A stretch of 47,724 bases of DNA, from assembly GCA_023150835.1 (NCBI GenBank), contig JAKLKB010000036.1, forward strand, positions 1 to 47,724. The letters are read 5' to 3'. Below, in pieces: positions 2,301 through 47,724 of the stretch. The DNA is from Myxococcota bacterium (GTDB lineage: Bacteria; Myxococcota_C; UBA6777). The stretch's first letter is position 1, and each line of letters starts with the position of its first letter. The position numbers were made by a program, and so were the translations under genes. Below the pieces are notes generated by a model that was not told the DNA's origin, ran no database searches, and saw only the letters and a list, made by a program, of their open reading frames with translations.

Positions 2301-2329
2301 CCGACACTCCTTCTATCGTGCAGATTCGA

Positions 2330-5931: not shown

Positions 5932-5935
5932 GGTC

Positions 5936-6442
5936 TTAGTGCAAATAGCTCAGCCAGTTGGGGGGAGGTTGAGAGCGTTGAAGCTGGGCGGAGACTTGGG
6001 CATGTGCAGCAGGTTTGTTTGGACGTGCCAACAGCCGCATCCCTGCTTCTTCGGGCGTGCGGTTTCCTTTGCGACGATTACAAGAAACACAACAAGAAAC
6101 GATATTTTCCCAACACGTTTTGCCACCGCGAGAGCGCGGGATCACATGGTCAAAGCTGAGTTCGTCTTCGCTGAAATAATCTGTGCAGTATTGGCACTGA
6201 TACCCGTCACGTGCGTAGATATTTTGCCGAGAGAACCGCAAGCCAAAGTAGCGGCGTTTCACATACTTTAGCAAGCGTACCACCGACGGCATACTCATCG
6301 TCAAAGAGATCGAACGCACAGGATGATCGTACTCTTCAACGACTTCTACTTTCCCCATAAAGAACAACGCCAAGGCGCGCTGCCACGGGATCACGCTCAA
6401 AGGTTCGAAGGAAGCGTTCAACAAAAGAGTTCGGTTATGCAT
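5936..6442 (-). CDS. HNH endonuclease (McrA-like, Zn-finger HNH)
   Basis: TLLLNASFEPL N-terminus, RDGYQCQYC, DHVIPRSRGG, ENIVSCCVSCNRRKGNRTP; start ATG 6442. Confidence 0.92.
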   Translation of the reverse strand: MHNRTLLLNASFEPLSVIPWQRALALFFMGKVEVVEEYDHPVRSISLTMSMPSVVRLLKYVKRRYFGLRFSRQNIYARDGYQCQYCTDYFSEDELSFDHVIPRSRGGKTCWENIVSCCVSCNRRKGNRTPEEAGMRLLARPNKPAAHAQVSAQLQRSQPPPNWLSYLH

Positions 6443-6923
6443 GGTCTTTTTCCCTTTGCTTCGTATGGTGCAACGCCGAAACATCCGGCGTCAGGACCCG
6501 AAGCGCGGTGCGATTTCCCTGCCCCGACAGAGAGAACAACACACACGCCATGGCGCGAGTTTGAACGGCTTGGTACGGAGGCCCACGACCAACAATCCAA
6601 GCAAGCCCACGACGCTCGCTTTGTGCGGTTTGTTGGACTCCTCTCTTCCACAAAGACAGCCATGCAGGATTTTCGTGAAAGATCGGAGCGTCGTTTTCTT
6701 TGGCGACGCCGCAAGGCTCCGAACAAAAAACATTCGGTACCGGCAAGAATGGAGCGAGAATGGCTGGAAAAGGATGGAATCGTTTGAACGCATCTCTCCT
6801 TCAAAGACATCCGCGATGCCCCAAGCTCAGACCCGAGGCTTCGGCTTTAACGACACACTTTCAAAAAAGTTCAAAAGCAACCACCTCATCGCCCAAGGGT
6901 TTTCAGCACACGAGCTCGACCGC

Positions 6924-7838
6924 TCACTTTTTCCGACGTACACGCGGGATCAACAACACTTTGAGTCGTATCTCCTGCCCTTCAGAGATACGAATGCGCC
7001 GAGTATACGGGGAAAACCCTTCGGATTCTACACGCAACAGATAATTTCCCACAGCCAAACCGCCGCTGATCACGGGCGTTTGTCCCATATAGCGACCGTT
7101 GAGTGTCACCTTTGCCCCTGTCGGATTGGAAAGCACCACAAACTGCGTTTGGGAGCCTTGACCGTCTTGCTGAACCGCCCCATCCCCCGCGTCTTTGGTT
7201 TCACGCCCGCCTCCTTCAAATCGGATCGAAAGCCGAGAACTGATCGAGGGTTGGATGTTGATGGACTTTTCGATACTTTTGTGCCCGTCCAAAACAAACC
7301 GCAACACGTGCGTACCGATCGGCAAGCTCGCCAACAACGGAGTGCGTCCAAGCATACGCTCGCCTTGGAACACTTGGGCTCCAGAGGGCGTAGACTGCGC
7401 GATCAACAGACCGCTGCTTTCGGGCTTTGGGAAAGGTGAACCTTGACGCGGCAAAGGTTCCTCAAGGCGAGGTGAACCGTCTTCTTTTCCGTCCTCTTTT
7501 CCCTCTTCTTTTTGTCCGACCGCCCCATCGCCGCTGCGTTCTTCGAGTCGTACCCGCAAGGTCAACTCTGAGCGCGACGGAAGGATGACATGGCTGGTCC
7601 ACGTCAGTCGGTTCGGATGGCGAAGTTCGAGATGATGGCGCCCCACAGGTAGGCGCAGATCAAGGGGTGTCTTTCCCCTACGTTCACCGTTGACCCAGAC
7701 CGTCGCAGAAGGCGTTGAACGCAAGACAAGGCGCTCTGCATGGGCTTCTTGAACAAGTCCCGCCGACCACAACACGCTCCAAACGGCCACACCATGCAGC
7801 CAACGCGACCACCGACCACACAAACGATCCGTATTCAC
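6924..7838 (-). CDS. Secreted protein with three PEGA domains
   Basis: Signal peptide ending AHA; three S(T/N)PxxAxVxxNG...G.TP repeats; GTG 7838 after GGAGG. Confidence 0.85.
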   Translation of the reverse strand: MNTDRLCGRWSRWLHGVAVWSVLWSAGLVQEAHAERLVLRSTPSATVWVNGERRGKTPLDLRLPVGRHHLELRHPNRLTWTSHVILPSRSELTLRVRLEERSGDGAVGQKEEGKEDGKEDGSPRLEEPLPRQGSPFPKPESSGLLIAQSTPSGAQVFQGERMLGRTPLLASLPIGTHVLRFVLDGHKSIEKSINIQPSISSRLSIRFEGGGRETKDAGDGAVQQDGQGSQTQFVVLSNPTGAKVTLNGRYMGQTPVISGGLAVGNYLLRVESEGFSPYTRRIRISEGQEIRLKVLLIPRVRRKK

Positions 7839-8155
7839 ACGAAACCTCCGTTTCCAAGAGCGCCGCTCCTCTGTGCAACATCTCTGCAACATCTTCTTTC
7901 GCCCTCATTAAAGCCGATATCGCTTGCATTTGCGATGCTTTCGCAAAAGAGCGCTTCTTTGTAATAAGGCAACCCCAAAGACAATGCAAGATCTCCAACC
8001 CCCTAAAAACAAAAACCCACCCAACGATCACCAAACCACCCACGAGAAGATTTGACAGTCTGCCGAGAAAAGGGCATCTTGGTGGCCGATGACGTGGAGA
8101 TGGATCTTGCGTGTAAGACTTTTCAAAAGATTTCACGCGAAAAAGGAGGATGCGC

Positions 8156-8989
8156 ATGAAGCGCGTGTTGGTCATTGCGGGATCGGATTCAGGGGGCGGG
8201 GCAGGCATTCAAGCGGATATCAAAACCATCGCAGCACGCGGTGTGTATGGCATGACCGCCATCACGGCATTGACGGCACAAAATACGATGGGAGTAGAAG
8301 ATGTCTTTGAGATCCCGTTGGCTTTCGTGGGACGCCAGATCGACGTTGTGATGAAGGATATCGGTGCAAACGTCTGGAAGACAGGGATGCTCTCAAGCCG
8401 CGAGATCATCGGACTCGTAGCAGGAAGGGCGCGAGATTACCTTGTCGATCGGCTGATCGTGGACCCCGTGATGGTTGCCAAAGGCGGTAGCCTGTTGCTC
8501 AAAACAGACGCCAAAGACGCTTTGATCCGAGAACTCTTCCCTGTGGCATTTGCGATCACCCCCAACCATCACGAAGCCCAAGAGCTTACAGGTTTGGAGA
8601 TCAAAACCCCCCAAGATATGGAAGAAGCGGCGCGAAAGCTCCATCAGATGGGGCCTCGTTATGTGATCGTCAAAGGCGGCGATCTTCCCAAAGAACAAGA
8701 CGCCCTTGATATCCTCTACGATGGAGGGTCTTTTTTTACACTGCGCGCACGCCGCCGCCAAACCTACAACACTCATGGGACGGGATGCACCTTTGCCTCT
8801 GCTTTCGCAGCGGAGATCGCCCGAGGACAGCCCGTATTGGATGCGGCCCGCCTTGCCAAACGCTACGTCACCGCCGCCATCGACTATGCCGACGAGATGG
8901 ATATCGGCAACGGCAACGGCCCCCTCAATCACTTCTTTGGAAAAGTCACCCCACTCCCCGACGAATCTTCCCAAACCACAAAAAGCTGA
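8156..8989 (+). CDS. thiD: Hydroxymethylpyrimidine/phosphomethylpyrimidine kinase
   Basis: IAGSDSGGGAGIQADIKT, TAQNT, KTGML, VDPVMVAKGG, TPN, HGTGCTFASA; GGAGG RBS. Confidence 0.96.
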   Translation: MKRVLVIAGSDSGGGAGIQADIKTIAARGVYGMTAITALTAQNTMGVEDVFEIPLAFVGRQIDVVMKDIGANVWKTGMLSSREIIGLVAGRARDYLVDRLIVDPVMVAKGGSLLLKTDAKDALIRELFPVAFAITPNHHEAQELTGLEIKTPQDMEEAARKLHQMGPRYVIVKGGDLPKEQDALDILYDGGSFFTLRARRRQTYNTHGTGCTFASAFAAEIARGQPVLDAARLAKRYVTAAIDYADEMDIGNGNGPLNHFFGKVTPLPDESSQTTKS

Positions 8990-10938
8990 TCGCTTAATAA
9001 GCGCATTTGTGCATCTTTTGCATACCGCGATGTGGGATGCAGACGTAAGATATCTTGCAATAAAGCATACGCCTTTGCGCGCTGGCCTGCTTCACGCAGT
9101 TGATCTGCTTCTTCCAAGATCCCCTCGCAACGGCGTGCATCTTCCAACAAGATCCCACCCAAGATCGGCGGATGCTCGCGCAACCACGCATCGATCTCGG
9201 CTTCGACGCGCCGAATCGCGCTCGCCTCCGCAACACGCCGCGCATCGGTCGTTTGCGGATTCGGTTTGGTCGACACTTGCGAGATACCCTGCGCATCGGT
9301 CGTTTGCGGATTTGGTTTGGTCGACACTTGCGAAACACGCCGCGCATCGGTCGTTTGCGGATTCGGTTTGGTCGACACTTGCGAGACACGCCGCGCATCG
9401 GTCGTTTGCGGGTTTGTGCTGATCTGAGATTGCGATTTGCGCCGCGTATCGGTCGTTTGCGGGTTTGTGCTGATCTGAGATTGCGATTTGCGCCGCGTAT
9501 CGGTCGTTTGAGCCTCTGCCCTCGCTGATACTTGGGGGCCTATCGCCGTTGCCAAGCGATCGACTTGGGGTGTTTGGATGGTTTGGATCTGTTGGGAGGT
9601 GTTGCGCAGCGGTTCGGGGTTGGGGTGTGCGTGGAAAGAGTGAGAGAGTTTTTCTAGTTCATCTTCTGAAAAGATCGCCTCTTCAAGCAAAGGAAGATGG
9701 CGGGCAAGCTGTTCTTCTTCGATGTTATGGGGCGTTGGAGTCAAGATACCAAAGGACGGAACGGGTGGCGTGGGAGAGGCATCGCCTGTGGGAGCGATCA
9801 AGGCGGCATAGGCGACAGGAGCGACAGGGCGTTTGACCAACGTTTGGAGTGTGTAGTTATCGTCTTGATCGTGTTCAAAAGCCGAAGGGAGCGAAGACAA
9901 GGCGTCTTCGATGTCGTCGACGATTGTGGGATGGGCGACTTCTGCGAGATCATCTTCTGTACGGATCCCCGAGTCGCTGTCGTTGTGTGTTGTGTGCTCG
10001 AATGAAGCGGGATATTGGGGCAGTTGATCCGCAGAAGGTGATCGCAACATCTGATCGAGTTGTTCGGGCTTGAGCAGCGGAGATCGAGAAACAGAAGTGG
10101 ATTGTTGGAAGATATCTTGTTCTTGCGCAGAAGAGCGAGCAGCAGAGCGCGGTTTTGACCCCGCAGCCAAGGCCGAAGAGGACGGCAACGGAACACTTGG
10201 GGCGGGCGCATCCACAGGCAAAGCCGCCCCTTCGTGGCCAAACTCTAAGCGTGCAGCGAGTTCCAAAAGCGCCGCATCTTGGGCATAACGAGTCTGAGCG
10301 TAGCGTTGTTGAACTTCTGCAAAGACGCGATAGGCTTGGGGTTGACGGCCAAGATGCAACAGGATCTGCGCACGCGCCAACATCCACTCGGGAGCGCGCC
10401 CATCCCGCCCTTCTTGGCGTTCCAGTTCTTTGAGGGCTTTTTCGTAACTGGCGGGATCACGGGCAAAGATCAACGTTTCCAATAAGGCCCTTGCCCCCGG
10501 CTGGATCACATCCAATAAACCGATCGCGGGCGGTTTCGGCAAAGAAGCCAGATAAGCGATCGTCGGATCGACTTTTTCTTCTTCAAGGCCCAAGCGTTTT
10601 GTTCGGGCTTCACGGCTTTCTTTCTTGATGCCTTGTAAGGTCCGACGAATAAACCACACCAACCAACCGACACTCACCGCAACCAACAGCAAAAAAACCC
10701 ACCCGAGGATGTTGTTGATATTGCGCAGCATCAAGAAGGTCTGGGCAAAATGAAACACCACAGACCACACCAGCCACAAAGCCAGCACAAAAGCCAAGAC
10801 CACAAGGCCGATCTTGAGATAGGCAGCGTGATGTTGGAAGGCCCCTTGCGCATTACGCCAGATCGACCCCAACCCCGTCCATTGGGAGACCCCTCGTTGC
10901 AAAGACTGCCATTGTGAACGAAACCACTCCATGCTCAC
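8929..10938 (-). CDS. Hypothetical membrane protein: two N-terminal TM helices, TPR-like segments, long low-complexity linker with 17-aa repeats
   Basis: 669-aa ORF directly after the dynamin-like gene; hydrophobic segments near aa 42-97; similar motifs QAYRVFAEVQQRYAQTRYAQDA and KAYALLQDILRLHPTSRYAKDA. Confidence 0.7.
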   Translation of the reverse strand: MSMEWFRSQWQSLQRGVSQWTGLGSIWRNAQGAFQHHAAYLKIGLVVLAFVLALWLVWSVVFHFAQTFLMLRNINNILGWVFLLLVAVSVGWLVWFIRRTLQGIKKESREARTKRLGLEEEKVDPTIAYLASLPKPPAIGLLDVIQPGARALLETLIFARDPASYEKALKELERQEGRDGRAPEWMLARAQILLHLGRQPQAYRVFAEVQQRYAQTRYAQDAALLELAARLEFGHEGAALPVDAPAPSVPLPSSSALAAGSKPRSAARSSAQEQDIFQQSTSVSRSPLLKPEQLDQMLRSPSADQLPQYPASFEHTTHNDSDSGIRTEDDLAEVAHPTIVDDIEDALSSLPSAFEHDQDDNYTLQTLVKRPVAPVAYAALIAPTGDASPTPPVPSFGILTPTPHNIEEEQLARHLPLLEEAIFSEDELEKLSHSFHAHPNPEPLRNTSQQIQTIQTPQVDRLATAIGPQVSARAEAQTTDTRRKSQSQISTNPQTTDTRRKSQSQISTNPQTTDARRVSQVSTKPNPQTTDARRVSQVSTKPNPQTTDAQGISQVSTKPNPQTTDARRVAEASAIRRVEAEIDAWLREHPPILGGILLEDARRCEGILEEADQLREAGQRAKAYALLQDILRLHPTSRYAKDAQMRLLSDQLFVVWEDSSGSGVTFPKK
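9236..9510. repeat. Coding tandem repeat, 51-bp unit, ~5.5 copies in two subtypes
   Basis: atcggtcgtttg core recurs every 51 bp; encodes PQTTDARRVSQVSTKPN / PQTTDTRRKSQSQISTN. Confidence 0.9.
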
Positions 10939-11001
10939 CTCGCGGTCGTCGAGTGTACGCAGACAACGCCTAGATGCGAAAAAATCTTTGTGCTTCGGAC
11001 G

Positions 11002-12960
11002 TTACGGGCTTGAACGCACAGAAGCTCCTTGTACGGGGGCCACCGAAGAGGAAGGGCTTTGAAGCAAAGCGCGGATCTCTTGAAGACGAGCAAGAAAACG
11101 ATCTCGCAACAAGTCGAGCTCTTTTTGGCGAATTTCCAAGATGGCACGTTGTGATTCCAAATACCCCGCCTGTCCGAGTTGATCGCGATGCTCTTCCATC
11201 ATCCGCGTGATCCGACCGAACAAGCTATCAAAGTACTGACTCACCCATTGTTTGATGCCTTGCGACACCCGATCAAGGATCAAAGCCATCTTGTCTGGAA
11301 GCAGGCGGCGTCCTTCGTGTAGCTGTTTGATCTGCGACTCGATATGTTGCCGAAGCTGCCGCGCTTTCATATAGTTTCGCGCAAACAGTCCCACCATAAA
11401 ACCGCCGATCCCACCGACAGGAAAAGCCAACGGACCTAAGAAAGACAGCAACGCCATCCCCTGCCCCCCCGCTGCCATCGTCGCACTCACCGTTGTCAGA
11501 CCCAAGATCGCCTCGGCAGCGCCCAAACGATCCTCGTATCCATCAAAGATCCCAAGCAGCGCTTTTTGGTTGCGGCTCAAGGCAAAAGACGTGCTGCTGT
11601 GCTTGAGTTGCCCGGGATCGCTCATCGCCAGCAGATCATCCAATTGCCGATAAAGCCATCGATGCGCGGCTTGAAAGATCGCATCCACCCGCTCTGCGAT
11701 CACTTTTTCGATCTTCGACCCCTGCACCAAGTTCTTTTGGTACAGCGCCTCGATCGACTCCACCATCGTACCAAAGACCTGCATCGTTTGGATCTCTTCG
11801 AGAGCCTGCACCGTTCCGTCCAACAACGCCCCAACTTCCGGCTCGATCATCGCTTGCAGACCCTTGATCTCCCCATCGATCGCATCAAAAAGTTCGTACT
11901 TTTTGAGTTCGGCTTTTTCGTGCGACTTATGCAGCGCGTGGATCTTCTTCTCGACATCGGCGCGTTTGGTAAACAGCACCTCGCCGCGCAACGTCAAGAG
12001 CTTTTGCAACAGCGTCACCACTTCAAAGCTATTGCGGATCGAAGAGGCCAGCACCGCACGGCTCGCATCTTGGGCCAAGAATCGCTCCAGATCCGACTGA
12101 AACGCTGGAAAACCGCTCGCGACAAAAGCCGCTTCATCGCCTTGTGTGATCGCTTCCCACGCCATCCGTGCGTTGATCACATACGCCCGTATCCGATCAG
12201 GCCGCAGATCGGGGTGGGCGCTCAGATCAGGGTCACGCGAGATATTGTGGATCACGCGCTCGCGCAACCGCTCGCGTTGCGGCCAAAAATCGCCCGAAAG
12301 ATTGATCACCAAAAACACTTTGTCGCACTGGTGGGTTGCACGCTTGAGAAAGTCCATCTCCCCACGCGTAAAGGGCGGATAAATGGACGTGATAATCACC
12401 GCCCCCATCTCATCCAAAAATCGCGTAGAAAGCTCGGTATAACTTTGGATCACGTCGTTGAGTCCGGGCGTATCAAAGAAACGGATGCCGTTTTTTAGAT
12501 AGCCCAGAGGCAAGCAGACACGCACCTTTGCGACACCTTTTTGATTTTCGGGATTGTGCATCTGATCAGTAAAGTGTGGGAGTTCTGCCCACGAAGTCGG
12601 CGCAACGCGACCATCCAGATAATGCACCTCCAAACGCTCCGTCTCACCGTACTCAAACTCCATCAGCGAGCCTGTGTTGGAGACCACATCAGGGCGCGTC
12701 ACTTCGCGGCGCGAAAGGCAATTGATCGTGGTCGACTTTCCACTACAAGTCTCGCCAAAGATCCCGATGGTCAGGCGATCATCTTGAACCAACTGCAGCC
12801 GCTTTTGGATCCGATCCAGAACGGTTTGTGTCAGCGAATCTCCCCCATCTTGCGCCTGATCGCGCCGCAACATCTCTGCCATCATCTCCAAATCCGAAAG
12901 CAGTTCTTGGCGGATCTCTATGTAGCGAGAAAGGCTTCCTTGCGGGTGTCGAAGCGTCAC
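11002..12960 (-). CDS. Bacterial dynamin-like GTPase
   Basis: G1 GETCSGKSTTIN, G3 FFDTPGLN, helical stalk, Gly-rich hydrophobic paddle (LGPLAFPVGGIGGFMVGLF); start GTG 12960 (or 12966) behind AGGAG. Confidence 0.85.
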   Translation of the reverse strand: MTLRHPQGSLSRYIEIRQELLSDLEMMAEMLRRDQAQDGGDSLTQTVLDRIQKRLQLVQDDRLTIGIFGETCSGKSTTINCLSRREVTRPDVVSNTGSLMEFEYGETERLEVHYLDGRVAPTSWAELPHFTDQMHNPENQKGVAKVRVCLPLGYLKNGIRFFDTPGLNDVIQSYTELSTRFLDEMGAVIITSIYPPFTRGEMDFLKRATHQCDKVFLVINLSGDFWPQRERLRERVIHNISRDPDLSAHPDLRPDRIRAYVINARMAWEAITQGDEAAFVASGFPAFQSDLERFLAQDASRAVLASSIRNSFEVVTLLQKLLTLRGEVLFTKRADVEKKIHALHKSHEKAELKKYELFDAIDGEIKGLQAMIEPEVGALLDGTVQALEEIQTMQVFGTMVESIEALYQKNLVQGSKIEKVIAERVDAIFQAAHRWLYRQLDDLLAMSDPGQLKHSSTSFALSRNQKALLGIFDGYEDRLGAAEAILGLTTVSATMAAGGQGMALLSFLGPLAFPVGGIGGFMVGLFARNYMKARQLRQHIESQIKQLHEGRRLLPDKMALILDRVSQGIKQWVSQYFDSLFGRITRMMEEHRDQLGQAGYLESQRAILEIRQKELDLLRDRFLARLQEIRALLQSPSSSVAPVQGASVRSSP

Positions 12961-38235: not shown

Positions 38236-38814
38236 TCAGGATCGGGCTTCTGAAAGCGCGTTGTATTCGAGATCTTTTTGCATCACCAAGGTATTTTCTC
38301 CGCCTTGTGTGGTGTAGTGGATCTGATCCATTAAGCGGCGGATCAAGTACAAGCCCAAGCCACCGCGATGACGGAGCGGGGGTCGCCCTTCTTTGGTGAT
38401 CGCCGCGATGCGTTCGGCCAATTGGGGGTCGCATCCAGCAGGCCCACGATCGTGGAGAGAGATCGTCAATCGCTGTTGTGTGAGTATGATGGAAGTGGCG
38501 CACCATCCGCGATCTTGGCCTGCGTAAGCGTGCCGCGAGATATTGGCGAGAGCCTCTTCGTAGGCAAGGATCAGATCACTTGCGAGATCTTCGTGCAAGC
38601 CCAACCGCCGAAAGATCCAAAAGGCCAAGGATCGCATCAAAGGGATCTCCGACAGAGATATCTCTGCCTGTAAGGTCGCGTGGTTGTCGGAGATGGCGTA
38701 GCGAAGGGAGAGATGAAAAGGTTCAGAAGGCTTGCAGCGATCGAGTTGTTCGTGCAGGTGTTCTTCGAAGTCTTTGGGGGAGAGTGCCGTGATGGAGATG
38801 CGTTCTTCGGACAC
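38236..38814 (-). CDS. Anti-sigma factor / Ser kinase (RsbW-like HATPase)
   Basis: LILAYEEALANISRHAY, ISLHDRG, RGGLGLYLIRRLMDQIHY, NTLVMQK; GTG 38814 after GGAG. Confidence 0.88.
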   Translation of the reverse strand: MSEERISITALSPKDFEEHLHEQLDRCKPSEPFHLSLRYAISDNHATLQAEISLSEIPLMRSLAFWIFRRLGLHEDLASDLILAYEEALANISRHAYAGQDRGWCATSIILTQQRLTISLHDRGPAGCDPQLAERIAAITKEGRPPLRHRGGLGLYLIRRLMDQIHYTTQGGENTLVMQKDLEYNALSEARS

Positions 38815-38858
38815 GATAGGACTCCCAAAGCATCCTAGGCACGCGCAACAAGCAAAGC

Positions 38859-39335
38859 TCACACTTCAAAGGGGGGATTGCCGCGCGCGTCTAGTGGTGG
38901 ACGATTCGGTCTCGGAGCATGAGCGCCCTCCATATAAACAAGATCAGGACGCGCCGTAAAGATGACAGCTTGTTGTTGGACCCAAACTTCGATGCGGTGC
39001 TGTAAAGAACGCAAGAGAAAAGTCCGAAACGACGGGATTAACAGCGCAAAGCCCGTCATATCGGTCAACAGGCCGGGCGTAATCAACAGCGCCCCCGCGA
39101 TCAAGATGCAGACGCCATCGAGAAGCTCGCGGGTGGGGACTTCGCCGCGTTGAAGGCTTTCTTGGATGGCGCGCAAGACCGCAAAGCCTTGATGACGGGC
39201 CAAGGCCGCCCCCAGAAATCCTGTCAACAGGATCAAGCCGATGGTCACGCCGATGTGAAAGTGTATCGTGATCTGAACGAAGATATACAACTCAAGCGCC
39301 GTCACGGTGATAAAAAGCAAAGAAAGACGAAACAT
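38859..39335 (-). CDS. fxsA: FxsA family membrane protein
   Basis: LELYIF, LTGFLGAALARHQG, LLITPGLLTDMTGFALLIP; ATG 39335 after GGAGG. Confidence 0.92.
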   Translation of the reverse strand: MFRLSLLFITVTALELYIFVQITIHFHIGVTIGLILLTGFLGAALARHQGFAVLRAIQESLQRGEVPTRELLDGVCILIAGALLITPGLLTDMTGFALLIPSFRTFLLRSLQHRIEVWVQQQAVIFTARPDLVYMEGAHAPRPNRPPLDARGNPPFEV

Positions 39336-39505
39336 CGCCCCCTCCTTCTTTTCAGGTGGAAAGATGCGGTGGATACGCTCACCCAAGCCTATCCCACACA
39401 AAAGCAGCGCCCATCATGGTGACGCCCGTCAGGGAAAAAAAGCCCCGTCCAAGAAACGCCCCCTCGCGCAACTGCTCTGTTCACCGGATTGAGCGGTTTG
39501 TTGGA

Positions 39506-39567
39506 TGGGGCGTTGCCCCATACGCGCCTTGTCGTACTTACCGTACTTACCGTGCTTTCCGTGCTTT
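39506..39567. repeat. Hairpin repeat (inverted copy of 139-165) followed by four 9-bp units
   Basis: tggggcgttgccccatacgcgccttgt then cgtacttac cgtacttac cgtgctttc cgtgcttt. Confidence 0.65.
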
Positions 39568-39611
39568 GCGAAGCGCGCAACTCCCGTTGGTCGTTGTCCG
39601 TGGACTCTTCT

Positions 39612-39727
39612 TTTCGATATCCTCTGCGTGATGCCCGCGTTTTGCACCAAGCCAGATGTGGCTTCACCTAACGCCGATGGGGGCTGCCCCTGCATCCTTA
39701 CGATCACACAACGGGCGGATTTCGTAT
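39612..39727. mobile_element. MITE-like element family A, diverged copy of 34286-34400
   Basis: Shares gggggctgcccct...ttacgat...caacgggcggatttcgtatcac with 34352-34403; left end cgatatcc; near-identical length. Confidence 0.65.
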
Positions 39728-41517
39728 CACTTCGAAGCGAAGGGGCTTGGGAGCATTCGAGGCTTTTTCTGATCGATCTTGACGCGCTGAAACTCGACGG
39801 TTTTCAACAAGAGGCTGGGTGCGATCGCCGAGACAGGGACATAACCCGATTCGGCTCCGCAAAAGCCGTTGAATACGCCATAATCGTCGCCTGTTGCGAT
39901 GATGTTGTTCACGACCGTTAGGGGAGTGCCGATCATCTCAAGCCCTTTGACAAGGGTTTGCTCGCCCGTTTTGGCGTCGATACGCAGAACAAGGTTGGGT
40001 CGGTTTTTGAAGGACTGGATATCGTAGGTGCTGGTGTGGGTGTAGCCCCCCGAAGATTTGCCGATGATAAAGGCGTAAGGTTTGCCCTGTTTACGGGCTT
40101 CTTCGATCAACATCGTGCGGAGTTGTTGGATGGGATGGGCGCGATGGCTGCGCACCAACAGGTTTCCTTGGCGACTGACAGGATTTGCACCAAAGACGCC
40201 GCGTCCGTGGCCGTTGGAGCGCTTGAATTGATCGATGGGTTTGCGCGAAAGCAAGAAATTTTGCAGGACGCCTTCTTTGATCAAGGGGACAGGTTGGGAA
40301 CGCACGCCCTGCTCATCGACGAGATAGTGACCGTTGAGCGGGGTGTCTTGCCAACGGCGAAGGGTGGGATCATCCAGAACGGAAAGGAAAGAGGGGATAA
40401 TTTTTTTGCCGATCTTGGAGCGAAAGGTGCGTCCGTCCGACTCGCTCAACATCCGCTGCGCTTCGAGACGATGCCCAAGAGCCTCGTGAAACAACACACC
40501 GGCCACATCGTTGAGTAAGATCGCGGGTGCTTCGATGGGTTCGGCTTCGGGTGCTTTGCTGAGATCGACGATCTCTTGGAGTGCGCTTTTTGTGATGGAG
40601 GTGAGCTGCTTTTCGTCGGGGAGGCCGGCCTCGGTGTCGAAATAAGCCAGCCGCGTGTTGGAGAGGTATTCTTTTTTTGCCGAGAGATAGGACACTTGAA
40701 CGACATACATATAAAGCGTTTTGTGTTGAATGATCGCGCTTCCGTCGCTATCGACCATCACCACAGCGCCTTGTTGGCCGCCCAAAGAGATCGTCGCTTT
40801 GACGATGCGGGGATCTTTGAGCGAAAACAGCGAGACCTTTTTGGCGATCTGGTTCCATTTTTTCATATCGAAGCGAAGAAGTGGCGGAGCATCGGTGAGG
40901 AGGACGCGCTGTTCTTTAGAGAAGTCGCCGCTTTTGTCCTTGATCTCGACTTTGAGGCTTTGGACGTAGCGTTTGCGATGGTACTGCGCAAGGCTCTCTT
41001 TGTATTCGCGATCAGCAAGCTGCCAGAGTCGTTTGCGCAAGGTGGGTTCATCGAGTTCTTTGGAAAAGCTGGAGGGGAATTGGAGAAGGTGTCGGTAGAT
41101 CTGCCAGTCGCGACCGTCGGGTCCGGTGTTATCGCGCTGGTGGTCGCCGATGCGGATAGATACTTGGAGTTGGTGTTTTGGGGATTTTCGGTTGTCTTCT
41201 TGTTTGAGGATCACCCCATCGCTGGCTTGAAGAGAAACCGATTGGCTGCGGAGCAAGCGAAAGCTCGCATAATAGGCCCGAGGCAGCTTTTGGGCGCGGA
41301 AAAAGCTCATGTATCGCTGGAGTTCATCACGCAAGATCGACTGGTAGCGTTGGAGAGATTCGAGCGAACGGGCCAGTTTTTGAGCGTCGGTCTGTTTGGG
41401 CAAAACGGACGTTGAGACCACAGGAGGCTGTGCAAAGGCCGAAGAGGTGAAGGCAAACAATCCAAGAGCGAGCAGAGAACAGCGCAAGAAGGCGGAGGAT
41501 CGGGTGGTTTGGGTCAT
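39727..41517 (-). CDS. TldD/PmbA-family metalloprotease with signal peptide
   Basis: HEALGH zinc motif, DEQGV, SNGHGR, RQGNL, FCGAESGYVPVS; signal peptide ending AFA; ATG 41517 after AAGGAG. Confidence 0.88.
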   Translation of the reverse strand: MTQTTRSSAFLRCSLLALGLFAFTSSAFAQPPVVSTSVLPKQTDAQKLARSLESLQRYQSILRDELQRYMSFFRAQKLPRAYYASFRLLRSQSVSLQASDGVILKQEDNRKSPKHQLQVSIRIGDHQRDNTGPDGRDWQIYRHLLQFPSSFSKELDEPTLRKRLWQLADREYKESLAQYHRKRYVQSLKVEIKDKSGDFSKEQRVLLTDAPPLLRFDMKKWNQIAKKVSLFSLKDPRIVKATISLGGQQGAVVMVDSDGSAIIQHKTLYMYVVQVSYLSAKKEYLSNTRLAYFDTEAGLPDEKQLTSITKSALQEIVDLSKAPEAEPIEAPAILLNDVAGVLFHEALGHRLEAQRMLSESDGRTFRSKIGKKIIPSFLSVLDDPTLRRWQDTPLNGHYLVDEQGVRSQPVPLIKEGVLQNFLLSRKPIDQFKRSNGHGRGVFGANPVSRQGNLLVRSHRAHPIQQLRTMLIEEARKQGKPYAFIIGKSSGGYTHTSTYDIQSFKNRPNLVLRIDAKTGEQTLVKGLEMIGTPLTVVNNIIATGDDYGVFNGFCGAESGYVPVSAIAPSLLLKTVEFQRVKIDQKKPRMLPSPFASK

Positions 41518-41549
41518 GAAAACTCCTTTTTGTGGAGGGCAGAAAAAGC

Positions 41550-44500
41550 TTAAAAAGCTTCTCCGATAGAAAAGTGGAATTGCCAGTCGCGTTGGAGAGG
41601 ATAACGATCGGCGTCTGGGAAAAGACGCCAAGCGATATCCAGTCGGATGGCCCCGATCACGGTGTGATAACGGATGCCAAAGCCAAGGCTCCAGCTTGGG
41701 CTAAGATCCGAGGGAGGGGCATTCTTGGCATCGTCCCAAAAACGACGTTCCAATTGAACCACCCCGACATCGGCAAACAAGACGATCCCAAGCGAACTCA
41801 CAAGAAAAGAAAGTGGGATGCGAAGCTCCAACGATCCGTAGATCTCTTGTTCACCACCCATCGGGATCACTTGGACGATGGTATCGGACACAGGGCCATA
41901 TTCACCGCGTCGGCCATCTTGGGAAAGCGAATCGTTGTAGCGCGCCATATCACGAAAACGATCGAGCGCGTTGCGCCCCGTCTGTTCGCGACAACGGACG
42001 CCACCAGTAGCGCTCCCAGCCCCTGAAAGCGTGACCGCATCGCCTGTTCGGATGCGAAAGTCGGTAATGCCGCTTTCTCCGCTGGAGGTGTTGGTTTCGA
42101 CGTAGTTGGGATTCGCGCTTTGAAAGCTTCGTTGGCACGCCAAAGGCCCAAGATACCGGGCTGTCCAGCCCCGCACACTGTTTGCGCCCCCGAGATAAAA
42201 ACGCTGCGTCAAGGGGCTTCGGTACACAACGCTTGAGGTGCGTTTGTCTTCGTCGGTGATACCGAAGTTCGGGGGCGAATCGCCGATCAGACGTGTCGAA
42301 AACAGCACACCATACTGAAAGCGCCCTGCGAGGATGACCTTGTCAGGGCCGAGGGTGGCGAGAGGGATGTAGAAACTGAGTTCGGGTGCAGCTTTGAAAT
42401 AAGCGTAGGAGCCAAGGGCTTGTTGGAGTGTGATCTTGAATTCAAACCCGCTGATGCGGCGGATCGGATCGTTGAGCCAACTCCAGATCAGTTGTTGCTC
42501 AAGGTACGCAAAGGCATAGGTTTCGCGCTCTCTTGGGAGCAAGACATTTTGCACGTTTGCAAGCTCCCCGTTGAGGCTGATGGTGCCTTGGATCGTACCG
42601 AATGTCGGACTCACAAGCAGCGGATAAGAGACGCTCGCCGAAGGAACCAGCCGCCAAAAGTCGGCATCACCGATCTGTTGGGTGTAGCTCCCAAGCAAAC
42701 GCAAACGAAAGTCACCTTGACGCTCGTTGACAAAAAAAGGCTGCACAAACGAGGCAGAGCCCGTGACATCGGGTCCCGAGTCGATCCGTCGAAGTACATC
42801 GGGAAGAAACGACCAACCGGGCCGAAGTTGAAGTTCCAACCGCCCCAACTCACCGATGTTATGGATCGTGATGCTGCCGCTGACTTCGATCTGGTTGCGT
42901 TGTCCGTCGATCACAAGACCGCCCCCAAACTTGCCAAGTCCGGGTCGATCTTCGCGAAGTTCGAGGGTGATGGGGATGCTGACCTGTTCGTTGAGCGCTC
43001 GGAAAGCCCGTTCTTCGAGGACAGCGGAGGCTTGGAACTCTTTATCGAGCAAGGCGGTTTCTTTTTGAAGGGCTTGTTCTTGGAGCAAGAGCGGATCGAG
43101 TTGTTTTTGTGTGAGTTGGATCGCGTTGATATCGTTAAATAGCTCGATCATCTCGTCTTGAAGGGGTGTAATCGCGGTGCGCGACTTGTTCTTTTCGCGA
43201 TAGGCTTTGCGAAAAGCGCGAAGCTCTTTTGTTGCTTCGTCGATCAGACGGGCGACATCTTGTTTTTGGATCTCGATCTCGCCCGATCTTGGGACAAAAA
43301 GCGGCGGAGGCTGTTGTTGTTCGCGTTTGGCGCGTGCGATCTGAAAAGCGCGGTAGCTGGTTTCGAGTCGGGCTTTTTGCTCGTAGTAGCGCTCGATCCA
43401 TGATTGTTTTTGAGCCGCCAGCTTTTCAAGGCGAGCTTTGTTTTGGTTTTGCTTTTCTGTTTTTTGGAGGCGGATATCACGGGCTTGTCGGATCTGATTG
43501 CGCAAGAAGGTTTGTCGAGCGCGAACGCCCGTGATATCGGGCTTAAAGTCGACCGCGCTAAACAGTCCAAGTCCTGAAAGGGTGCGTTGGGTTTGGATCA
43601 GCGTCTGGATCTTGTAGATCTCGCCTTTTTTGAACTTGATGTAGTTGCGCAAGGCTTTGTAGTTGACACGCGGAGGATACGAGCGCCCCTCGATCACCAG
43701 AGGCAAAGGCTTGAGAGCGATCTCTCCAAAGCGGCAAGAAGGCCCGCTGTTGATGATCAAACGCATCTTGACCGCTGTTGCCGAACGCATCGGCGGCGTG
43801 GGAGCAACAGCATCGGGACTTGTTGCGGCAGGCGGACGCTGCGAGGATGGATTCGGTTTTTGGGGACTGGCCTTGATCTCCAAAGCGACATCTTTCTCGA
43901 TGATGACTTCACCCGTAAACTCTGCGAGGGCGAAACTCGCGTCTTGAAGACGCTGGATCACGGCGGCCTTGGTATTTTGGTAATCTGGCGTCGAAAAGCT
44001 CTCGCCCTTCTTGATCTTTAATCCCTGCAAGATCTCCGCTTTGAAGGCTTCTTCGATCTTGCGACGCCAAGCGATTTTTGCGCGCAAGGAGGGGACCTTG
44101 CCTTTGCCGTCCCACAGTTTGAGCTGGATCAGTTTTTTTCCGATGTACTCATCAGGCAGGCGCCCCAACTGCCAAATGATCTCCGCATCGGTCAAAAGCT
44201 CGGCCTGTGGGCCTTCTTGGATCTGAAAGATCACACGAACCCGTTGATAGGGACGATACGTGTTCTTTTGCGTCAGGATGATCGGAGAATGGGGGGCTTC
44301 TTCGACTTTTGCGCGATAAAACCCGTGATAGCGATAAGCATTTTGCAAGCGTTGAAGATCAGCCCGAACGATGGCCTTGTTGTAGACAGTGTATTGGCCC
44401 GAAGCCCGAAGCCTTGTGGTGCGCGCAAAAAACGCCGTAGGAGCGGTCTCGATGGCTTTTTGAAGCGTTGAATCGGAGAGTTTTTTGTTGCCTTGAAACT

Positions 44501-44627
44501 CAATGCCCCAGATCACTTGGGGGATGGCTCCGGGTCGTGTGGGCTTGGGTAAACTCATACACCCGCTCAGAAACACAGAACAGACCACCAACCATCGAGC
44601 GAACACTGCGGCAGGATCAGGCTTCAT
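41550..44627 (-). CDS. Omp85-family outer membrane protein (TamA/BamA-like), lipoprotein type
   Basis: Lipobox LSGC; POTRA motifs (IEFQGNKKLS, YRYHGFY, LSGLGLFSAV); RFYLGGANSVRGW; GIRYHTVIGAIRLDIA; C-terminal FHFSIGEAF. Confidence 0.9.
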   Translation of the reverse strand: MKPDPAAVFARWLVVCSVFLSGCMSLPKPTRPGAIPQVIWGIEFQGNKKLSDSTLQKAIETAPTAFFARTTRLRASGQYTVYNKAIVRADLQRLQNAYRYHGFYRAKVEEAPHSPIILTQKNTYRPYQRVRVIFQIQEGPQAELLTDAEIIWQLGRLPDEYIGKKLIQLKLWDGKGKVPSLRAKIAWRRKIEEAFKAEILQGLKIKKGESFSTPDYQNTKAAVIQRLQDASFALAEFTGEVIIEKDVALEIKASPQKPNPSSQRPPAATSPDAVAPTPPMRSATAVKMRLIINSGPSCRFGEIALKPLPLVIEGRSYPPRVNYKALRNYIKFKKGEIYKIQTLIQTQRTLSGLGLFSAVDFKPDITGVRARQTFLRNQIRQARDIRLQKTEKQNQNKARLEKLAAQKQSWIERYYEQKARLETSYRAFQIARAKREQQQPPPLFVPRSGEIEIQKQDVARLIDEATKELRAFRKAYREKNKSRTAITPLQDEMIELFNDINAIQLTQKQLDPLLLQEQALQKETALLDKEFQASAVLEERAFRALNEQVSIPITLELREDRPGLGKFGGGLVIDGQRNQIEVSGSITIHNIGELGRLELQLRPGWSFLPDVLRRIDSGPDVTGSASFVQPFFVNERQGDFRLRLLGSYTQQIGDADFWRLVPSASVSYPLLVSPTFGTIQGTISLNGELANVQNVLLPRERETYAFAYLEQQLIWSWLNDPIRRISGFEFKITLQQALGSYAYFKAAPELSFYIPLATLGPDKVILAGRFQYGVLFSTRLIGDSPPNFGITDEDKRTSSVVYRSPLTQRFYLGGANSVRGWTARYLGPLACQRSFQSANPNYVETNTSSGESGITDFRIRTGDAVTLSGAGSATGGVRCREQTGRNALDRFRDMARYNDSLSQDGRRGEYGPVSDTIVQVIPMGGEQEIYGSLELRIPLSFLVSSLGIVLFADVGVVQLERRFWDDAKNAPPSDLSPSWSLGFGIRYHTVIGAIRLDIAWRLFPDADRYPLQRDWQFHFSIGEAF

Positions 44628-45288
44628 CGTCGTTTTTCTACCCACAACATGAGATCAAGAGAAACATCGGGGACGCTCTATTTTGTCTTGGTTCCGAGAG
44701 ATTCGGGAAAAAAGATGCCCAAGGAAGCAGGATCGTGCGCTTAGGTTCGTGGATCCTACCCGTTGCGTCAAGGAGCGGCCAAAAGAATCTGCCACCAAGC
44801 GCATCGGACCGACACCGTAAGATGGTTTTGTGAAGAAGACGTTTTTCACACAAACGCCTCTACCGATTGGAATGTCCGCCCTCTGCGCGAAGGAGCGATA
44901 CTTGGGCAGAGATTGGAGCAGGGATGCTCCACGGATCGATGTTCCAGCCAAAGAGTCCTCCGCGAAAAGGCAGACGGACAGATCCTCGACAGAGATGGCA
45001 CAATTTATGATGAGGGCGCATCCACACAAACAGAACGCTGTCACCCCAAGGCAGATCGCTCAAACAAACAGAGAACAAAGCGGAGGGGTATCTCAAAAAG
45101 CACTCAGCTTTCTAATGCGAAAAGCGCCAAGCAGCGGTCGGTTTGGAAAAAGAAGAGACAAAAAACAAGCAAGATCGTTGAAAAGAGGCTCGCGGTTGGG
45201 CTATACAAGACGGCCTGTGCGAGATCAGCAAAGAAAACGAACCAAGGTTCGCGAAAAACACCGCGACCACGTCGAGGAGTGATAGACC

Positions 45289-45888
45289 ATGAAAAAGTTG
45301 CTGTTTTGGATCCCGTTGGCTTGCCTGTTTTGGGTTTCGTTGCCCGCTCAAGAAGCCGAGGCTTATTGGGGCTATCGCAACTATACCGTAGAACGCCAAA
45401 CCTTTCGTCCACGTTTTTCTGTGACGCTTGCGGGCGGTCTGCACTTTGTGGACTTTTTTGACAACGGATCGTACGGATTCACCTACGGCTTGATCGAAGC
45501 GGGTGGTCACTTGTGGGTTCATCCCAATATCTCGATCGACTTGAACGTCGGGGGACACCTGACAGCAAACAACTGGAGCGGGCAAGGATGGGGCTATTTG
45601 AGCATCAAACCGGGTGCGCGCTTCCGTTTTGGCATCTTTTACTTGCGGGCAGCCGTGGATCTTGGGTTTGGTTCCCCCCAAGTCTCGCCAACAACAGCCA
45701 CCGATATGCGTTCGCGCAGCAAAGAAAGTTCGCTGTTTTTGTTTGGCATCCTGATGGGTGCAGGGTTGCGCATCCCTGTGAGCCGCCATGTTCGGGTGTT
45801 TGGAGAGTTGACCTACCAGTTCAACTTCTCTCCTGATCCGCTGTATATGCCGTTCTACGGCCAAGTCGGTGTCGAAGTCGTCTTCTAA
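45289..45888 (+). CDS. Small outer-membrane beta-barrel protein
   Basis: GAGGAG RBS, signal peptide ending AEA, amphipathic strands, C-terminal GVEVVF. Confidence 0.8.
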   Translation: MKKLLFWIPLACLFWVSLPAQEAEAYWGYRNYTVERQTFRPRFSVTLAGGLHFVDFFDNGSYGFTYGLIEAGGHLWVHPNISIDLNVGGHLTANNWSGQGWGYLSIKPGARFRFGIFYLRAAVDLGFGSPQVSPTTATDMRSRSKESSLFLFGILMGAGLRIPVSRHVRVFGELTYQFNFSPDPLYMPFYGQVGVEVVF

Positions 45889-45993
45889 AAAGGTTTGCGA
45901 GTGGACAACAGGGGGAGGGTTCAGGGGAATTCAGGGGAACGGAGCAATCTTCATCCTTGCGGAGGGCGTTTCATCCGTAGGAGGTGGTCACAA

Positions 45994-47724
45994 GTGGAGC
46001 AAACACACCTTGAAGAAAACATCGATATCTCGGAGGGCGGTTTTCCGGGTGGGTGGGGGGCGGATTCGCCCTATCGCAAGTGGCCGCAGCCTGTGGGTTC
46101 GGCGATCATCGATATGCTACAAGAACCCCCGATCAACAGCGCAGACGAGTTGGTGCATCTGCTCGAAGTGTGGTTGCGCCATATCGGTCTATTGTGGATG
46201 GCCTCGTATCTGCGGGGAAGATGGCACGATTCACGTCTTGATCGCCTGTTGTTTTCGATGCTATTGGATGGAGAGCGGGATCTTTCGGTAGGTGCGTGGG
46301 CTTATCTAGGCTCGCAGATCTTCCACACCTATCGGCGTCATGGGTGGGATGCGGATTGGCCGCGTCTGTCTTCGTTTGATTATGGCGATCCACGCGATGA
46401 AGAGTCGCGGCTGTCTCGGCTACTGCGCTATCGCAACAGTTTTGCGCATGGCAGTTTTCAGGCAGCCCTACAGGATATCTTGGAACATCGGCGTTGTTTG
46501 TGGGAGATGATCGCCGCATTTGATGCGCTGCGCGAAGCCCCGATCTTGTTTTGGGAAAGCGGGCAACAACGCTGGTGTTGTATGGATCTCGACGCAACGC
46601 TGTGGGAAGGCGAAGTCCCCAACGAGGTGCAACAAGACACGCTCTATTGGCGCGTGGAAAGGGGGCGATGGTTCACGCTTTCGCCTTTTTGGTCGGTTCA
46701 ACCAAAAACGACGCCCGCGTTGTATGCGAGCCATCCGTTTCATCTTGTACCTTTTTCGTTGTCCGAGATCACGCTGGCAGAACGCGAAGCAGCGTTGTCT
46801 GCTCACCCGCAGATCGCGGCGCATCTTCAACGATACCAGTCGATACGGATGGGGGATCTAGACAGCCATCAGACATGGGATGGGGAGACCTTGGAAGCAC
46901 TCCATCCCGATACGCGAGAGAGGATCCTTGAACGCCTGCGGGGTGCGCTCTCCAAAAAACAGCCCGACAAACCCAACTTCGTTTTGGTGTCTGCTTACCC
47001 GGGCAGCGGGAAAAGCGCCTTGGTCGGCCAAGCCGATACGTTGTTTTCGGGCTTTGATCAAGTGCTGCGTTATCGGGTGGATCGGCACACGCCGTCGCTT
47101 TCGGGCAGAACCTTCGCACGTTACCTGCTGCGGAAGTTGGAGCCGTATCGCGCAAAAGACGATGGCAGCGAAGAGATCACATCTTCTCCTGAAGAAGCTT
47201 TGCATCGGGCATTTGCAGCGTTTGCACGCCACAACAAACGTCTGTTGGTGTGCATCGATCGTTTTCATCTGGCGTATGAATCGTTTCAAAAAGATCCATC
47301 GATCTATGAGATATTGTCGAATATTCGGGGAGAATGGGCTTCAAGCCTGTGCTTCTTGTTGGCAGCCCGAACAGGATACCGCGATCATCTGATGTACGAC
47401 ACGGTGATCGAATTGCCTCCCGTCGAGTTCGACAAGACGGCTGCTTATCCCCGTCTATTGGGGGAGTTGGGATTGTTGCTGGATGATCCAGATACCCCTT
47501 ACCCGCCTGACGAGGTCAGACTACGAAGACACCTGTTGCGGATCATGGCGGCAAAGTCCGAAGCCGTATCGGTGTTTTCGTTGTGTGATCGGCTGCACGA
47601 CGAAGCAGATCGCGGTGTCCTCGATTGGACGGAAGCCCAACGCTTTTCGCCGCACATCGAGCGGATCATTTGGGAGCTACGCCCGATCCTTCGGTGTGAA
47701 ACACGCCAAGAGGCGGACGGTTTT
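45994..47724 (+). CDS. HEPN-motif + P-loop (STAND-like) NTPase protein, partial (3' end beyond window)
   Basis: Hand translation: GTG 45994 after AGGAGGT, open for 577 codons to the edge; LSVGAW, RNSFAHG (46432-46452), Walker A AYPGSGKS (46993-47016), Walker B LLVCID (47242-47259). Not in the supplied ORF track because no stop is in the window. Confidence 0.8.
   Translation, partial: MEQTHLEENIDISEGGFPGGWGADSPYRKWPQPVGSAIIDMLQEPPINSADELVHLLEVWLRHIGLLWMASYLRGRWHDSRLDRLLFSMLLDGERDLSVGAWAYLGSQIFHTYRRHGWDADWPRLSSFDYGDPRDEESRLSRLLRYRNSFAHGSFQAALQDILEHRRCLWEMIAAFDALREAPILFWESGQQRWCCMDLDATLWEGEVPNEVQQDTLYWRVERGRWFTLSPFWSVQPKTTPALYASHPFHLVPFSLSEITLAEREAALSAHPQIAAHLQRYQSIRMGDLDSHQTWDGETLEALHPDTRERILERLRGALSKKQPDKPNFVLVSAYPGSGKSALVGQADTLFSGFDQVLRYRVDRHTPSLSGRTFARYLLRKLEPYRAKDDGSEEITSSPEEALHRAFAAFARHNKRLLVCIDRFHLAYESFQKDPSIYEILSNIRGEWASSLCFLLAARTGYRDHLMYDTVIELPPVEFDKTAAYPRLLGELGLLLDDPDTPYPPDEVRLRRHLLRIMAAKSEAVSVFSLCDRLHDEADRGVLDWTEAQRFSPHIERIIWELRPILRCETRQEADGF

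Follow-up and report, generated by a model that had tools for sequence, protein, structure and literature searches.

The 47,724-nucleotide (nt) contig JAKLKB010000036.1 of a Myxococcota bacterium, referred to here as the window, ends inside a gene that starts at position 45994 on the forward strand and encodes a protein of 607 amino acids (aa). The interpretation that we favour, and to which we give about an even chance, is that the gene encodes a nucleoside triphosphate (NTP)-gated HEPN RNase with a minimal nucleotide-binding oligomerisation domain (NOD) and no repeat sensor. The cytoplasmic 607-aa protein would comprise a divergent HEPN endoribonuclease, a small non-helical domain, a minimal STAND NOD and a short, probably winged-helix tail. 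Nucleotide binding to the NOD would promote self-association, bringing together two HEPN-like domains whose Rx4H motifs would form a composite, metal-independent RNase site that cuts RNA. Slow hydrolysis would allow the protein to work as a binding switch, with the trigger read by the middle domain, the tail or a partner. The HEPN fold, RNase activity, oligomerisation-driven activation, slow hydrolysis and biological role are the parts of this scheme that we infer.

A complete gene divided between two contigs

The open frame at 45895..47724 on the forward strand reaches the last base of the window, and it is absent from the default list of open reading frames (ORFs) because it is open at its 3' end. 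A sequence-only reading of the window had picked it out as an uncalled frame with a strong ribosome-binding site, which direct inspection bears out: the likeliest start is the GTG at 45994, preceded by AGGAGG at 45979-45984 with a 9-nt spacer, and a 100% identical database protein (P0001, 607 aa) has the same first residue and the same last 30 residues. Numbered from this GTG, the motifs named in that reading (SxGxW, RNSFAH at aa 147-152, the Walker A lysine K340 and the Walker B string LLVCID) all lie where it placed them.

The window is the complete contig C191 of a genome assembled into 239 contigs (7.56 Mb, 93% complete), and the gene spans an assembly break. The next piece, contig C69 (locus L003), opens with the last 40 nt of the window (47685-47724), and across the C191-C69 join the frame goes on for 30 codons to a TAG stop (L003 nt 41-133), giving the protein of 607 aa. 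Gene order on an intact 40-kb contig of a sister species (L004, 92% identical) confirms the join: there a 607-aa ortholog is followed by convergent genes for 1025-aa and 559-aa Ig-like proteins, and C69 opens with the matching convergent genes.

The sequence-only reading had also seen a helical region continuing off the window toward a sensor domain beyond it. The retrieved downstream sequence refutes this expectation, since the frame stops 30 codons on and no TPR, WD40 or FGE domain follows. We attach next to no probability to a tripartite Avs- or bNACHT-like antiviral protein with a TPR, WD40 or FGE sensor past the window edge. One remote relative (P0072, 1737 aa) does place a C-terminal extension of ~1200 aa behind the N-terminal domain and NTPase, but the early stop is present on the intact L004 contig as well, all 13 members of the window's subfamily measure 562-644 aa, and the gene that comes next, in convergent orientation, is for a secreted Ig-like/vWA-type protein. 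The stop codon and the full-length database protein together rule out a sensor-bearing form of the window gene. Fragments and P0072 aside, the lengths of relatives range from 503 to 650 aa.

Compared with the 92%-identical ortholog on L004, the ratio of non-synonymous to synonymous substitution rates (dN/dS) is 0.11 for the whole gene. By part, it is lowest in the HEPN-like domain (0.056) and lies at 0.11-0.14 elsewhere in the gene, with values of 0.00-0.12 in neighbouring genes; no region of the gene shows diversifying selection in this comparison. Since dN/dS is 0.11 and relatives exist, the gene is genuine, and it is under purifying selection.

The N-terminal domain and its RxxxxH motif

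The HEPN-like domain, the most constrained part of the gene by dN/dS, carries an Rx4H dyad that does not vary in the family. In an alignment of 52 relatives, which share 18-60% identity with the window protein, five columns are invariant (G100, R147, H152, G287 and P553), and in a wider alignment of 65 sequences the invariant columns are G100, R147 and H152. Near-invariant among the 52 are N148 (50), F150 (49), G153 (50), W102 (49) and E58 (48, with D in three more), while Arg or Lys occupies position 62, as in an E-x3-[KR] pattern, in 20; E-x3-R/K is found in the window's subfamily. The Rx4H dyad is also present in all five downstream paralogs of the sister clade described below. The HEPN signature, as set out in sections of Anantharaman et al. 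(2013; PMC3710099), combines Rx4-6H, in which a polar N, D or H comes next to the Arg, with an acidic residue further upstream, often as E-x3-[KR]. The conserved R147, N148, H152, G153 and E58 fit these descriptors as those sections give them, N148 supplying the polar residue after the Arg in 50 of 52 sequences (PMC3710099). Judged by its conservation, the RxxxxH motif is no chance match.

Profile comparisons point in the same direction. HEPN_RiboL-PSP (PF18735) is matched by eight of the 52 relatives (best E 0.0049) and HEPN_MAE_28990 (PF18737) by four (best E 0.01), and these are the only non-NTPase Pfam families matched by more than one of them. Six of 11 N-domain pieces match the RiboL-PSP, MAE_28990 or Swt1 HEPN models, in each case at the motif end of the profile. 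When the family profile of aa 25-190 is aligned by hhalign with 24 bona fide RiboL-PSP HEPN domains from other genomes, the match has a probability of 80.7% (P 1.3e-5) over 47 columns, which span the motif and the helices on either side of it. Control alignments with the reversed query, the C-domain, the NTPase or the middle domain give P >= 0.3, and 30 column-shuffled HEPN profiles give probabilities of <= 0.5%. The greedy hhalign alignment pairs Glu58 with a conserved Glu of the RiboL-PSP HEPN domains, at low confidence. A hidden Markov model (HMM) of the 24 HEPN domains ranks the window ORF fifth among the 48,353 ORFs of its own genome. A crude propensity script predicts helix at aa 30-59, 70-76, 80-94 and 159-179, strand at 66-69 and a non-helical stretch at 181-262.

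Several results weigh against an HEPN assignment. All Pfam HEPN scores are sub-threshold, at 11-21 bits against cut-offs of 26.8-28.4, the best being 13.6 (cut-off 28.4) for the window protein and 20.8 (cut-off 26.8) for the family. In the 24-domain HMM ranking the E-value of the window ORF is only 0.84. Masking aa 147-152 lowers the hhalign probability to 0.2%, so that the sequence evidence for HEPN homology lies in the motif and its immediate setting only. Searched by sequence against solved structures, the N-domain profile has no match at E up to 10; profile searches returned neither standalone N-domain relatives of near length nor longer proteins containing aa 25-300; and Glu58 is missing from the intact-P-loop paralogs of the sister clade. 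The HEPN claim of the sequence-only reading thus divides, the RxxxxH motif proving fully conserved (52 of 52 and 65 of 65) and the homology behind it being weakly supported.

These points could be read as showing a new helical domain that is not an HEPN RNase, its Arg/His motif binding a ligand, a partner or nucleic acid and the whole protein being a nuclease-free, STAND-type signalling or regulatory ATPase. Such a regulator would be at home in the core, syntenic, non-defence context described below, and parts of PMC13581612 describe non-defence STAND clades, transcriptional regulators among them, as common. Yet the residues held constant are the exact HEPN catalytic signature, including the Asn after the Arg and the upstream Glu, as that signature is worded in sections of PMC3710099. 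The only recurrent non-NTPase families are HEPN families, and a Pfam scan of the protein detected no DNA-binding output domain. We consider a nuclease-free regulator rather unlikely. HEPN homology is weakly supported, and the N-terminal domain is probably an HEPN-fold RNase domain.

On the HEPN side, the PADLOC Csx1/Csm6 model is matched by one relative and CARF_HEPN by one paralog, both below curated cut-offs. A search with PF18737 returned mostly PF18735 proteins and gained no independent family. A two-copy complex prediction for aa 25-250 (score 0.00, mark 0.42) gives no evidence either way. Feature matches in the ESM Atlas, which serve as leads only, are to unnamed clusters of 214-241 aa (0.93-0.94) and to one cluster (0.77-0.78), 11% of whose members have an RnlA-toxin_DBD. 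In the HEPN HMM ranking the gene is outscored by four ORFs from elsewhere in the genome (one on C70, two on C223 and one on C216), which have E-values of 0.0067-0.3 and may be further HEPN proteins; the one on C70 lies in the +0 frame at aa offset 43538.

The STAND-type NTPase and the C-terminal tail

The second half of the protein had been described as a STAND-like NTPase, and here profile searches agree. Over aa 308-430 the protein scores 44.4 bits with Pfam AAA_16 (cut-off 32.6, E 3.3e-11), and nSTAND1, nSTAND_NTPase5, AAA_22 and ATPase_2 match the protein below their cut-offs. The 52 relatives match AAA_16 (19), AAA_22 (18), nSTAND_NTPase5 (12), NPHP3_N (9), nSTAND1 (5), NACHT (4) and ATPase_2 (4), with nSTAND, NACHT, NPHP3_N and NB-ARC scoring sub-threshold across the family. 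With the family profile, the solved structure that comes closest by sequence belongs to a plant NLR, and the match is not significant (E 0.044). On these matches the P-loop domain is a STAND-type NTPase.

The Walker A string AYPGSGKS satisfies the consensus [AG]xxxxGK[ST] with K340. It takes the form GYPG[ST]GK[ST] in 13 of 13 subfamily members, except that three rows (including the window protein) begin with A in place of G and P0003 has GAGKS; among all 52 relatives the Lys is kept in 22. Walker B reads [IV]-D-[RQN]-[FI]-H in 13 of 13 subfamily members (Q for H in P0013) and is missing the second acidic residue, in line with the D-R (D422-R423) that the sequence-only reading had remarked on. 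The presence of R, Q or N rather than D or E after the Walker B Asp suggests that nucleotide hydrolysis is slow. Arg459, 37 aa past Walker B, lies in the string L-L-[AT]-A-R-[PT]-G-Y-R of the subfamily; the Arg is present in 13 of 13 subfamily members and 13 of 52 relatives overall, and by its position it is a candidate sensor 1.

In Las1-Grc3 an HEPN nuclease is coupled with a polynucleotide kinase, and the joining of an HEPN-like motif and a P-loop in one chain could be seen as an RNA processing or repair enzyme of that manner, in which the P-loop would be a polynucleotide kinase acting on HEPN-made ends. Weak matches to Zeta_toxin (3 of 52) and to AAA_18, a kinase-type P-loop family (3 of 52), lean this way. 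The significant and recurrent matches, however, are of STAND/AAA+ type (AAA_16, AAA_22, nSTAND, NPHP3_N, NACHT and NB-ARC), the spacing of K340, D422 and R459 fits the STAND/AAA+ class, and 30 of the 52 relatives have lost the Walker A Lys while keeping the R and H, a loss that a coupled kinase would not tolerate. On these three grounds the polynucleotide-kinase reading of the P-loop is rejected, and the enzyme it implies is very improbable.

Beyond the NTPase core, 137 aa carry the motif F-x-P-x-[VI]-E-R-x-L-W-x-L-R-P-x-L, in which P553 is found in 52 of 52 relatives, E556 in 48, F551 in 45 and L566 in 46. By analogy with other STAND proteins the tail is a probable helical and winged-helix part. 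A Pfam scan of the 607-aa protein finds no repeat families.

An N-terminal module with exchangeable partners and a paired sister clade

A search of 1.84 billion clustered proteins recovers a family of 68 representatives at E <= 0.001, and a word-indexed search for relatives gave 12 matches. The short relatives P0016, P0054, P0059, P0060 and P0062 are, to judge from their odd C-terminal tails, probably fragments. The middle domain (aa 183-262), which matches no Pfam family in the window protein or in the 52 relatives, always accompanies the N-domain and is aligned with it in the paralogs, P0069 and P0072. In P0069 (442 aa) the pair stands behind a cNMP_binding domain (E 3.7e-20) and there is no NTPase (hhalign 98%), while in P0072 it is followed by an NPHP3_N/NB-ARC-like NTPase and the long extension (hhalign 98%, 345 columns). 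Such recurrence of the N-domain and middle domain with different partners is what one would expect if an effector module were operated by different switches.

The sister clade, which accounts for 39 of the 52 aligned sequences, has largely lost the nucleotide-binding Lys: 30 of the 39 are without the Walker A Lys, and all retain R147 and H152. At each of its five loci (L007, L008, L009, L047 and L048) a paralog of 712-728 aa directly follows the gene, and in L007 the start and stop of the two genes overlap. The downstream paralog shares the N-domain, including RNxxxH, and the upstream copy with the dead Walker A keeps RNSFAHGSF. An intact P-loop was seen in the three full-length paralogs and reads GMGKT in L007; the L047 and L048 paralogs end at contig ends and are outside this P-loop reading. 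In the three full-length paralogs NPHP3_N scores above its cut-off, AAA_16 does so only in L007 and NACHT stays below. The arrangement looks like a pseudo-NTPase/NTPase pair, which points to two-chain pairing as an inherent property of the family. Genes near the pairs, each at a single locus, include an LRR gene (L007 11619-12521), a TPR gene (L009 5664-7763, minus strand) and a WD40/APAF1_C gene (L008 5303-8368, minus strand).

Genomic context and inheritance

The GTDB phylum, class and order of the source genome are represented by only six species genomes (5.1-10.8 Mb), which makes this a poorly sampled lineage. Five of the six carry exactly one copy of the gene; the sixth genome is 64% complete. 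In all five gene-bearing genomes a gene for a small outer-membrane protein (OMP) of about 200 aa lies directly upstream on the matching strand, with 45-51% identity between genera (L005, L006 and L016); beyond it come genes for Omp85/POTRA and TldD/PmbA. The OMP-gene arrangement recurs on two further metagenome contigs (L044 and L046). Inheritance of the gene within the phylum is vertical and syntenic.

The block at window positions 38236-45888, which encodes a HATPase_c_2 protein, FxsA, a TldD/PmbA-like peptidase, a 1031-aa Omp85/POTRA protein and the small OMP, has 39-59% identity to other genera of the phylum. The small OMP itself has the same protein sequence (100% identity) in the window and L004, although the two genes differ by 21 synonymous changes. 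On the other side, the convergent downstream genes (L003 259-5203, minus strand) encode the 1025-aa and 559-aa proteins, with HYDIN/ASH/Cep192-type Ig-like and PKD domains; both are 97-99% identical in L004, with dN/dS of 0.02-0.05. DNA of the window was found in sequencing runs of nine studies labelled as sludge, wastewater, aquatic or bioreactor metagenomes.

The constant OMP neighbour admits a variant of the favoured mechanism in which the enzyme is the same and its role is that of a housekeeping or envelope-linked RNase switch tied to the small OMP gene, for example in RNA turnover governed by envelope state. Besides the synteny with the small OMP gene and the adjoining Omp85 and TldD/PmbA genes, the two genes are separated by only 3 nt in L006, and no promoter-like or terminator-like site was found between them in the window. 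Against this, simple descent could account for synteny within one small phylum, no such OMP gene adjoins the genes of the sister clade, and no mechanism connects a cytoplasmic NTPase with an outer-membrane barrel. Assembled contigs from RNA libraries are a further consideration. Those covering the small OMP gene (X15/X16 and X17) stop within 45941-45998, at the start of the HEPN-like gene, where a DNA run continues. This is faintly suggestive of a transcript ending, or of the RNA level falling steeply, in that 58-nt stretch, and of a separate transcript for the gene. We regard the envelope-linked role as improbable.

In two studies, contigs assembled from RNA libraries match stretches of the gene with 100% identity, which is no proof of transcription, DNA being a possible source; other stretches have no such cover in X15-X17, from which no conclusion is drawn. 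No promoter or terminator was found around the gene start or after the stop.

Is the gene antiviral?

The sequence-only reading had proposed an antiviral gene of the Avs or bNACHT type, and the genomic context lends this no support. No PADLOC family matches the protein, none matches more than three of the 52 relatives, and NCBIfam likewise has no matching family. None of the ten genes within ~11 kb matches PADLOC, and the neighbours, which encode Omp85, TldD/PmbA, FxsA and an outer-membrane protein, form no defence island. Among viral contigs none of the 14 pattern matches was a relative. The gene is a single syntenic copy in the five genomes, and it is under purifying selection with no sign of a diversifying component.

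On the other hand, a missing repeat sensor does not on its own rule out immunity, since passages of 10.1101/2022.07.19.500537 report a phage-defence clade of bacterial NACHT proteins whose C-termini are short and free of repeats. HEPN is listed there among the effector heads of bacterial NACHT proteins (10.1101/2022.07.19.500537), and a defence effector domain is one criterion for a defence-associated STAND clade in the portion of a recent survey (PMC13581612) that deals with such clades. If the protein is an NTP-gated HEPN RNase, we place an antiviral or abortive-infection role somewhat below an even chance, and the remaining probability falls to a lineage-fixed switch in stress, dormancy or RNA turnover (suicide is also named). 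A domesticated cellular switch is an equally good or better match to the fixed single copy, the housekeeping synteny and the lack of relatives in viral contigs.

This can be carried a step further, into a picture that is unlikely as a whole. The gene would encode a 'domesticated' NLR, namely an HEPN-NOD RNase switch that has no sensor and is kept in the core genome of its phylum, next to genes of outer-membrane biogenesis, by vertical descent, and the sister clade would form obligate pseudo-NTPase/NTPase pairs with a composite HEPN site across the heterodimer, resembling plant sensor/helper NLRs.

Table 1. Features of the gene and its surroundings, with the paired loci of the sister clade. Positions refer to the window unless a locus is named.
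Feature	Position	Strand	Basis or remark
Ribosome-binding site AGGAGG	45979..45984	+	9 nt before GTG; sequence read
Coding sequence, first 577 of 607 codons	45994..47724	+	remaining 30 codons and TAG on C69
N-terminal helical HEPN-like domain, aa 25-182	46066..46539	+	invariant motif, weak HEPN profile matches, lowest dN/dS, crude propensities
Glu58, conserved upstream acidic residue	46165..46167	+	alignment of 52
LSVGAW (SxGxW), aa 97-102	46282..46299	+	G100 52/52, W102 49/52
YRNSFAHGSF, aa 146-155, candidate catalytic dyad R147/H152 (Rx4H)	46429..46458	+	alignment of 52
Middle non-helical (possibly beta-rich) domain, aa 183-262	46540..46779	+	co-occurs with N-domain; crude propensities
STAND-type P-loop NTPase domain, aa 301-470	46894..47403	+	Pfam AAA_16
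Walker A AYPGSGKS (K340)	46993..47016	+	sequence read; subfamily conservation
Walker B LLVCID (D422), then R423	47242..47262	+	sequence read; subfamily conservation
Arg459, candidate sensor-1 Arg in LLAAR(T/P)GYRD	47368..47370	+	assigned by position
C-terminal part (helical, probably winged-helix), aa 471-577 of 607	47404..47724	+	conserved motif; winged helix predicted
Small outer-membrane beta-barrel gene, 199 aa	45289..45888	+	Pfam OMP_b-brl E 1.2e-4, below cut-off
Sister-clade pair	L007 7887-11689
Sister-clade pair	L008 ~7971-11785
Sister-clade pair	L009 ~7630-11432
Sister-clade pair	L047 ~5147-8040		paralog at contig end
Sister-clade pair	L048 ~354-3010		paralog at contig end

Comparison with known systems

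The literature on HEPN with STAND or NACHT domains that we searched gave no description of the family; supplementary tables, which lay outside the search, may well list members. Fusions of an N-terminal HEPN domain to a STAND NTPase are catalogued in bacteria in the relevant parts of Anantharaman et al. (2013; PMC3710099), and the window protein resembles them, as they are described there, in domain order, in the Rx4H with a polar residue after the Arg and in the predicted NTP-regulated RNase activity. Compared by description, the catalogued fusions carry TPR, S1 or cold-shock-type C-termini (PMC3710099), whereas the window protein has none. It differs further in an N-domain that scores below the Pfam HEPN cut-offs and in a conserved extra middle domain. 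In its relation to PF18735 and PF18737 the R-N-x-x-A-H-G motif and the following helix align, and outside the motif region there is no detectable similarity.

A second point of reference is the bNACHT clade with short C-termini, such as bNACHT01, which in passages of 10.1101/2022.07.19.500537 shares with the window protein an NLR-type NTPase, an N-terminal enzymatic effector and the absence of a repeat sensor. Unlike bNACHT, the window protein has neither a PADLOC match nor a Pfam NACHT match, with NACHT reached by only four of the 52 relatives and always sub-threshold; its gene lies outside any defence island and is vertically inherited, and no phage phenotype is known for it.

PrrC and RloC, in the account given in parts of PMC3710099, are likewise HEPN RNases restrained and released by an NTPase of the same chain, and consist of an N-terminal ABC/Rad50-type NTPase and a C-terminal HEPN domain encoded in restriction-modification loci. 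The window protein has the reverse domain order and a STAND-type NTPase, and its gene has no restriction-modification neighbour. In RNase L and Ire1 an HEPN RNase is activated by dimerisation or oligomerisation driven by a nucleotide-binding module. This module is a (pseudo)kinase in eukaryotic proteins, in contrast to the P-loop NOD of the window protein; the comparison is by description, sections of PMC3710099 naming these KEN-domain RNases together with HEPN.

Fusions of HEPN and STAND domains have been predicted since 2013, and NACHT proteins with enzymatic heads protect bacteria from phage. A protein made of an effector, one further small domain and a bare NOD prompts the question of how a trigger is read when there is no repeat sensor. 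The gene behaves as a core gene of a phylum rather than as a mobile defence gene; if the protein is indeed an RNase switch, it would represent an NLR-type machine in a fixed cellular role. The sister clade, with a P-loop-dead copy beside an intact one and the RNase motif retained in both, would offer a simple system for studying cooperation in NLR pairs and HEPN dimers. While the general kind, a fusion of HEPN and STAND domains, is already known, the family is set apart by its minimal sensor-less form, its pattern of inheritance and its paired sister clade.

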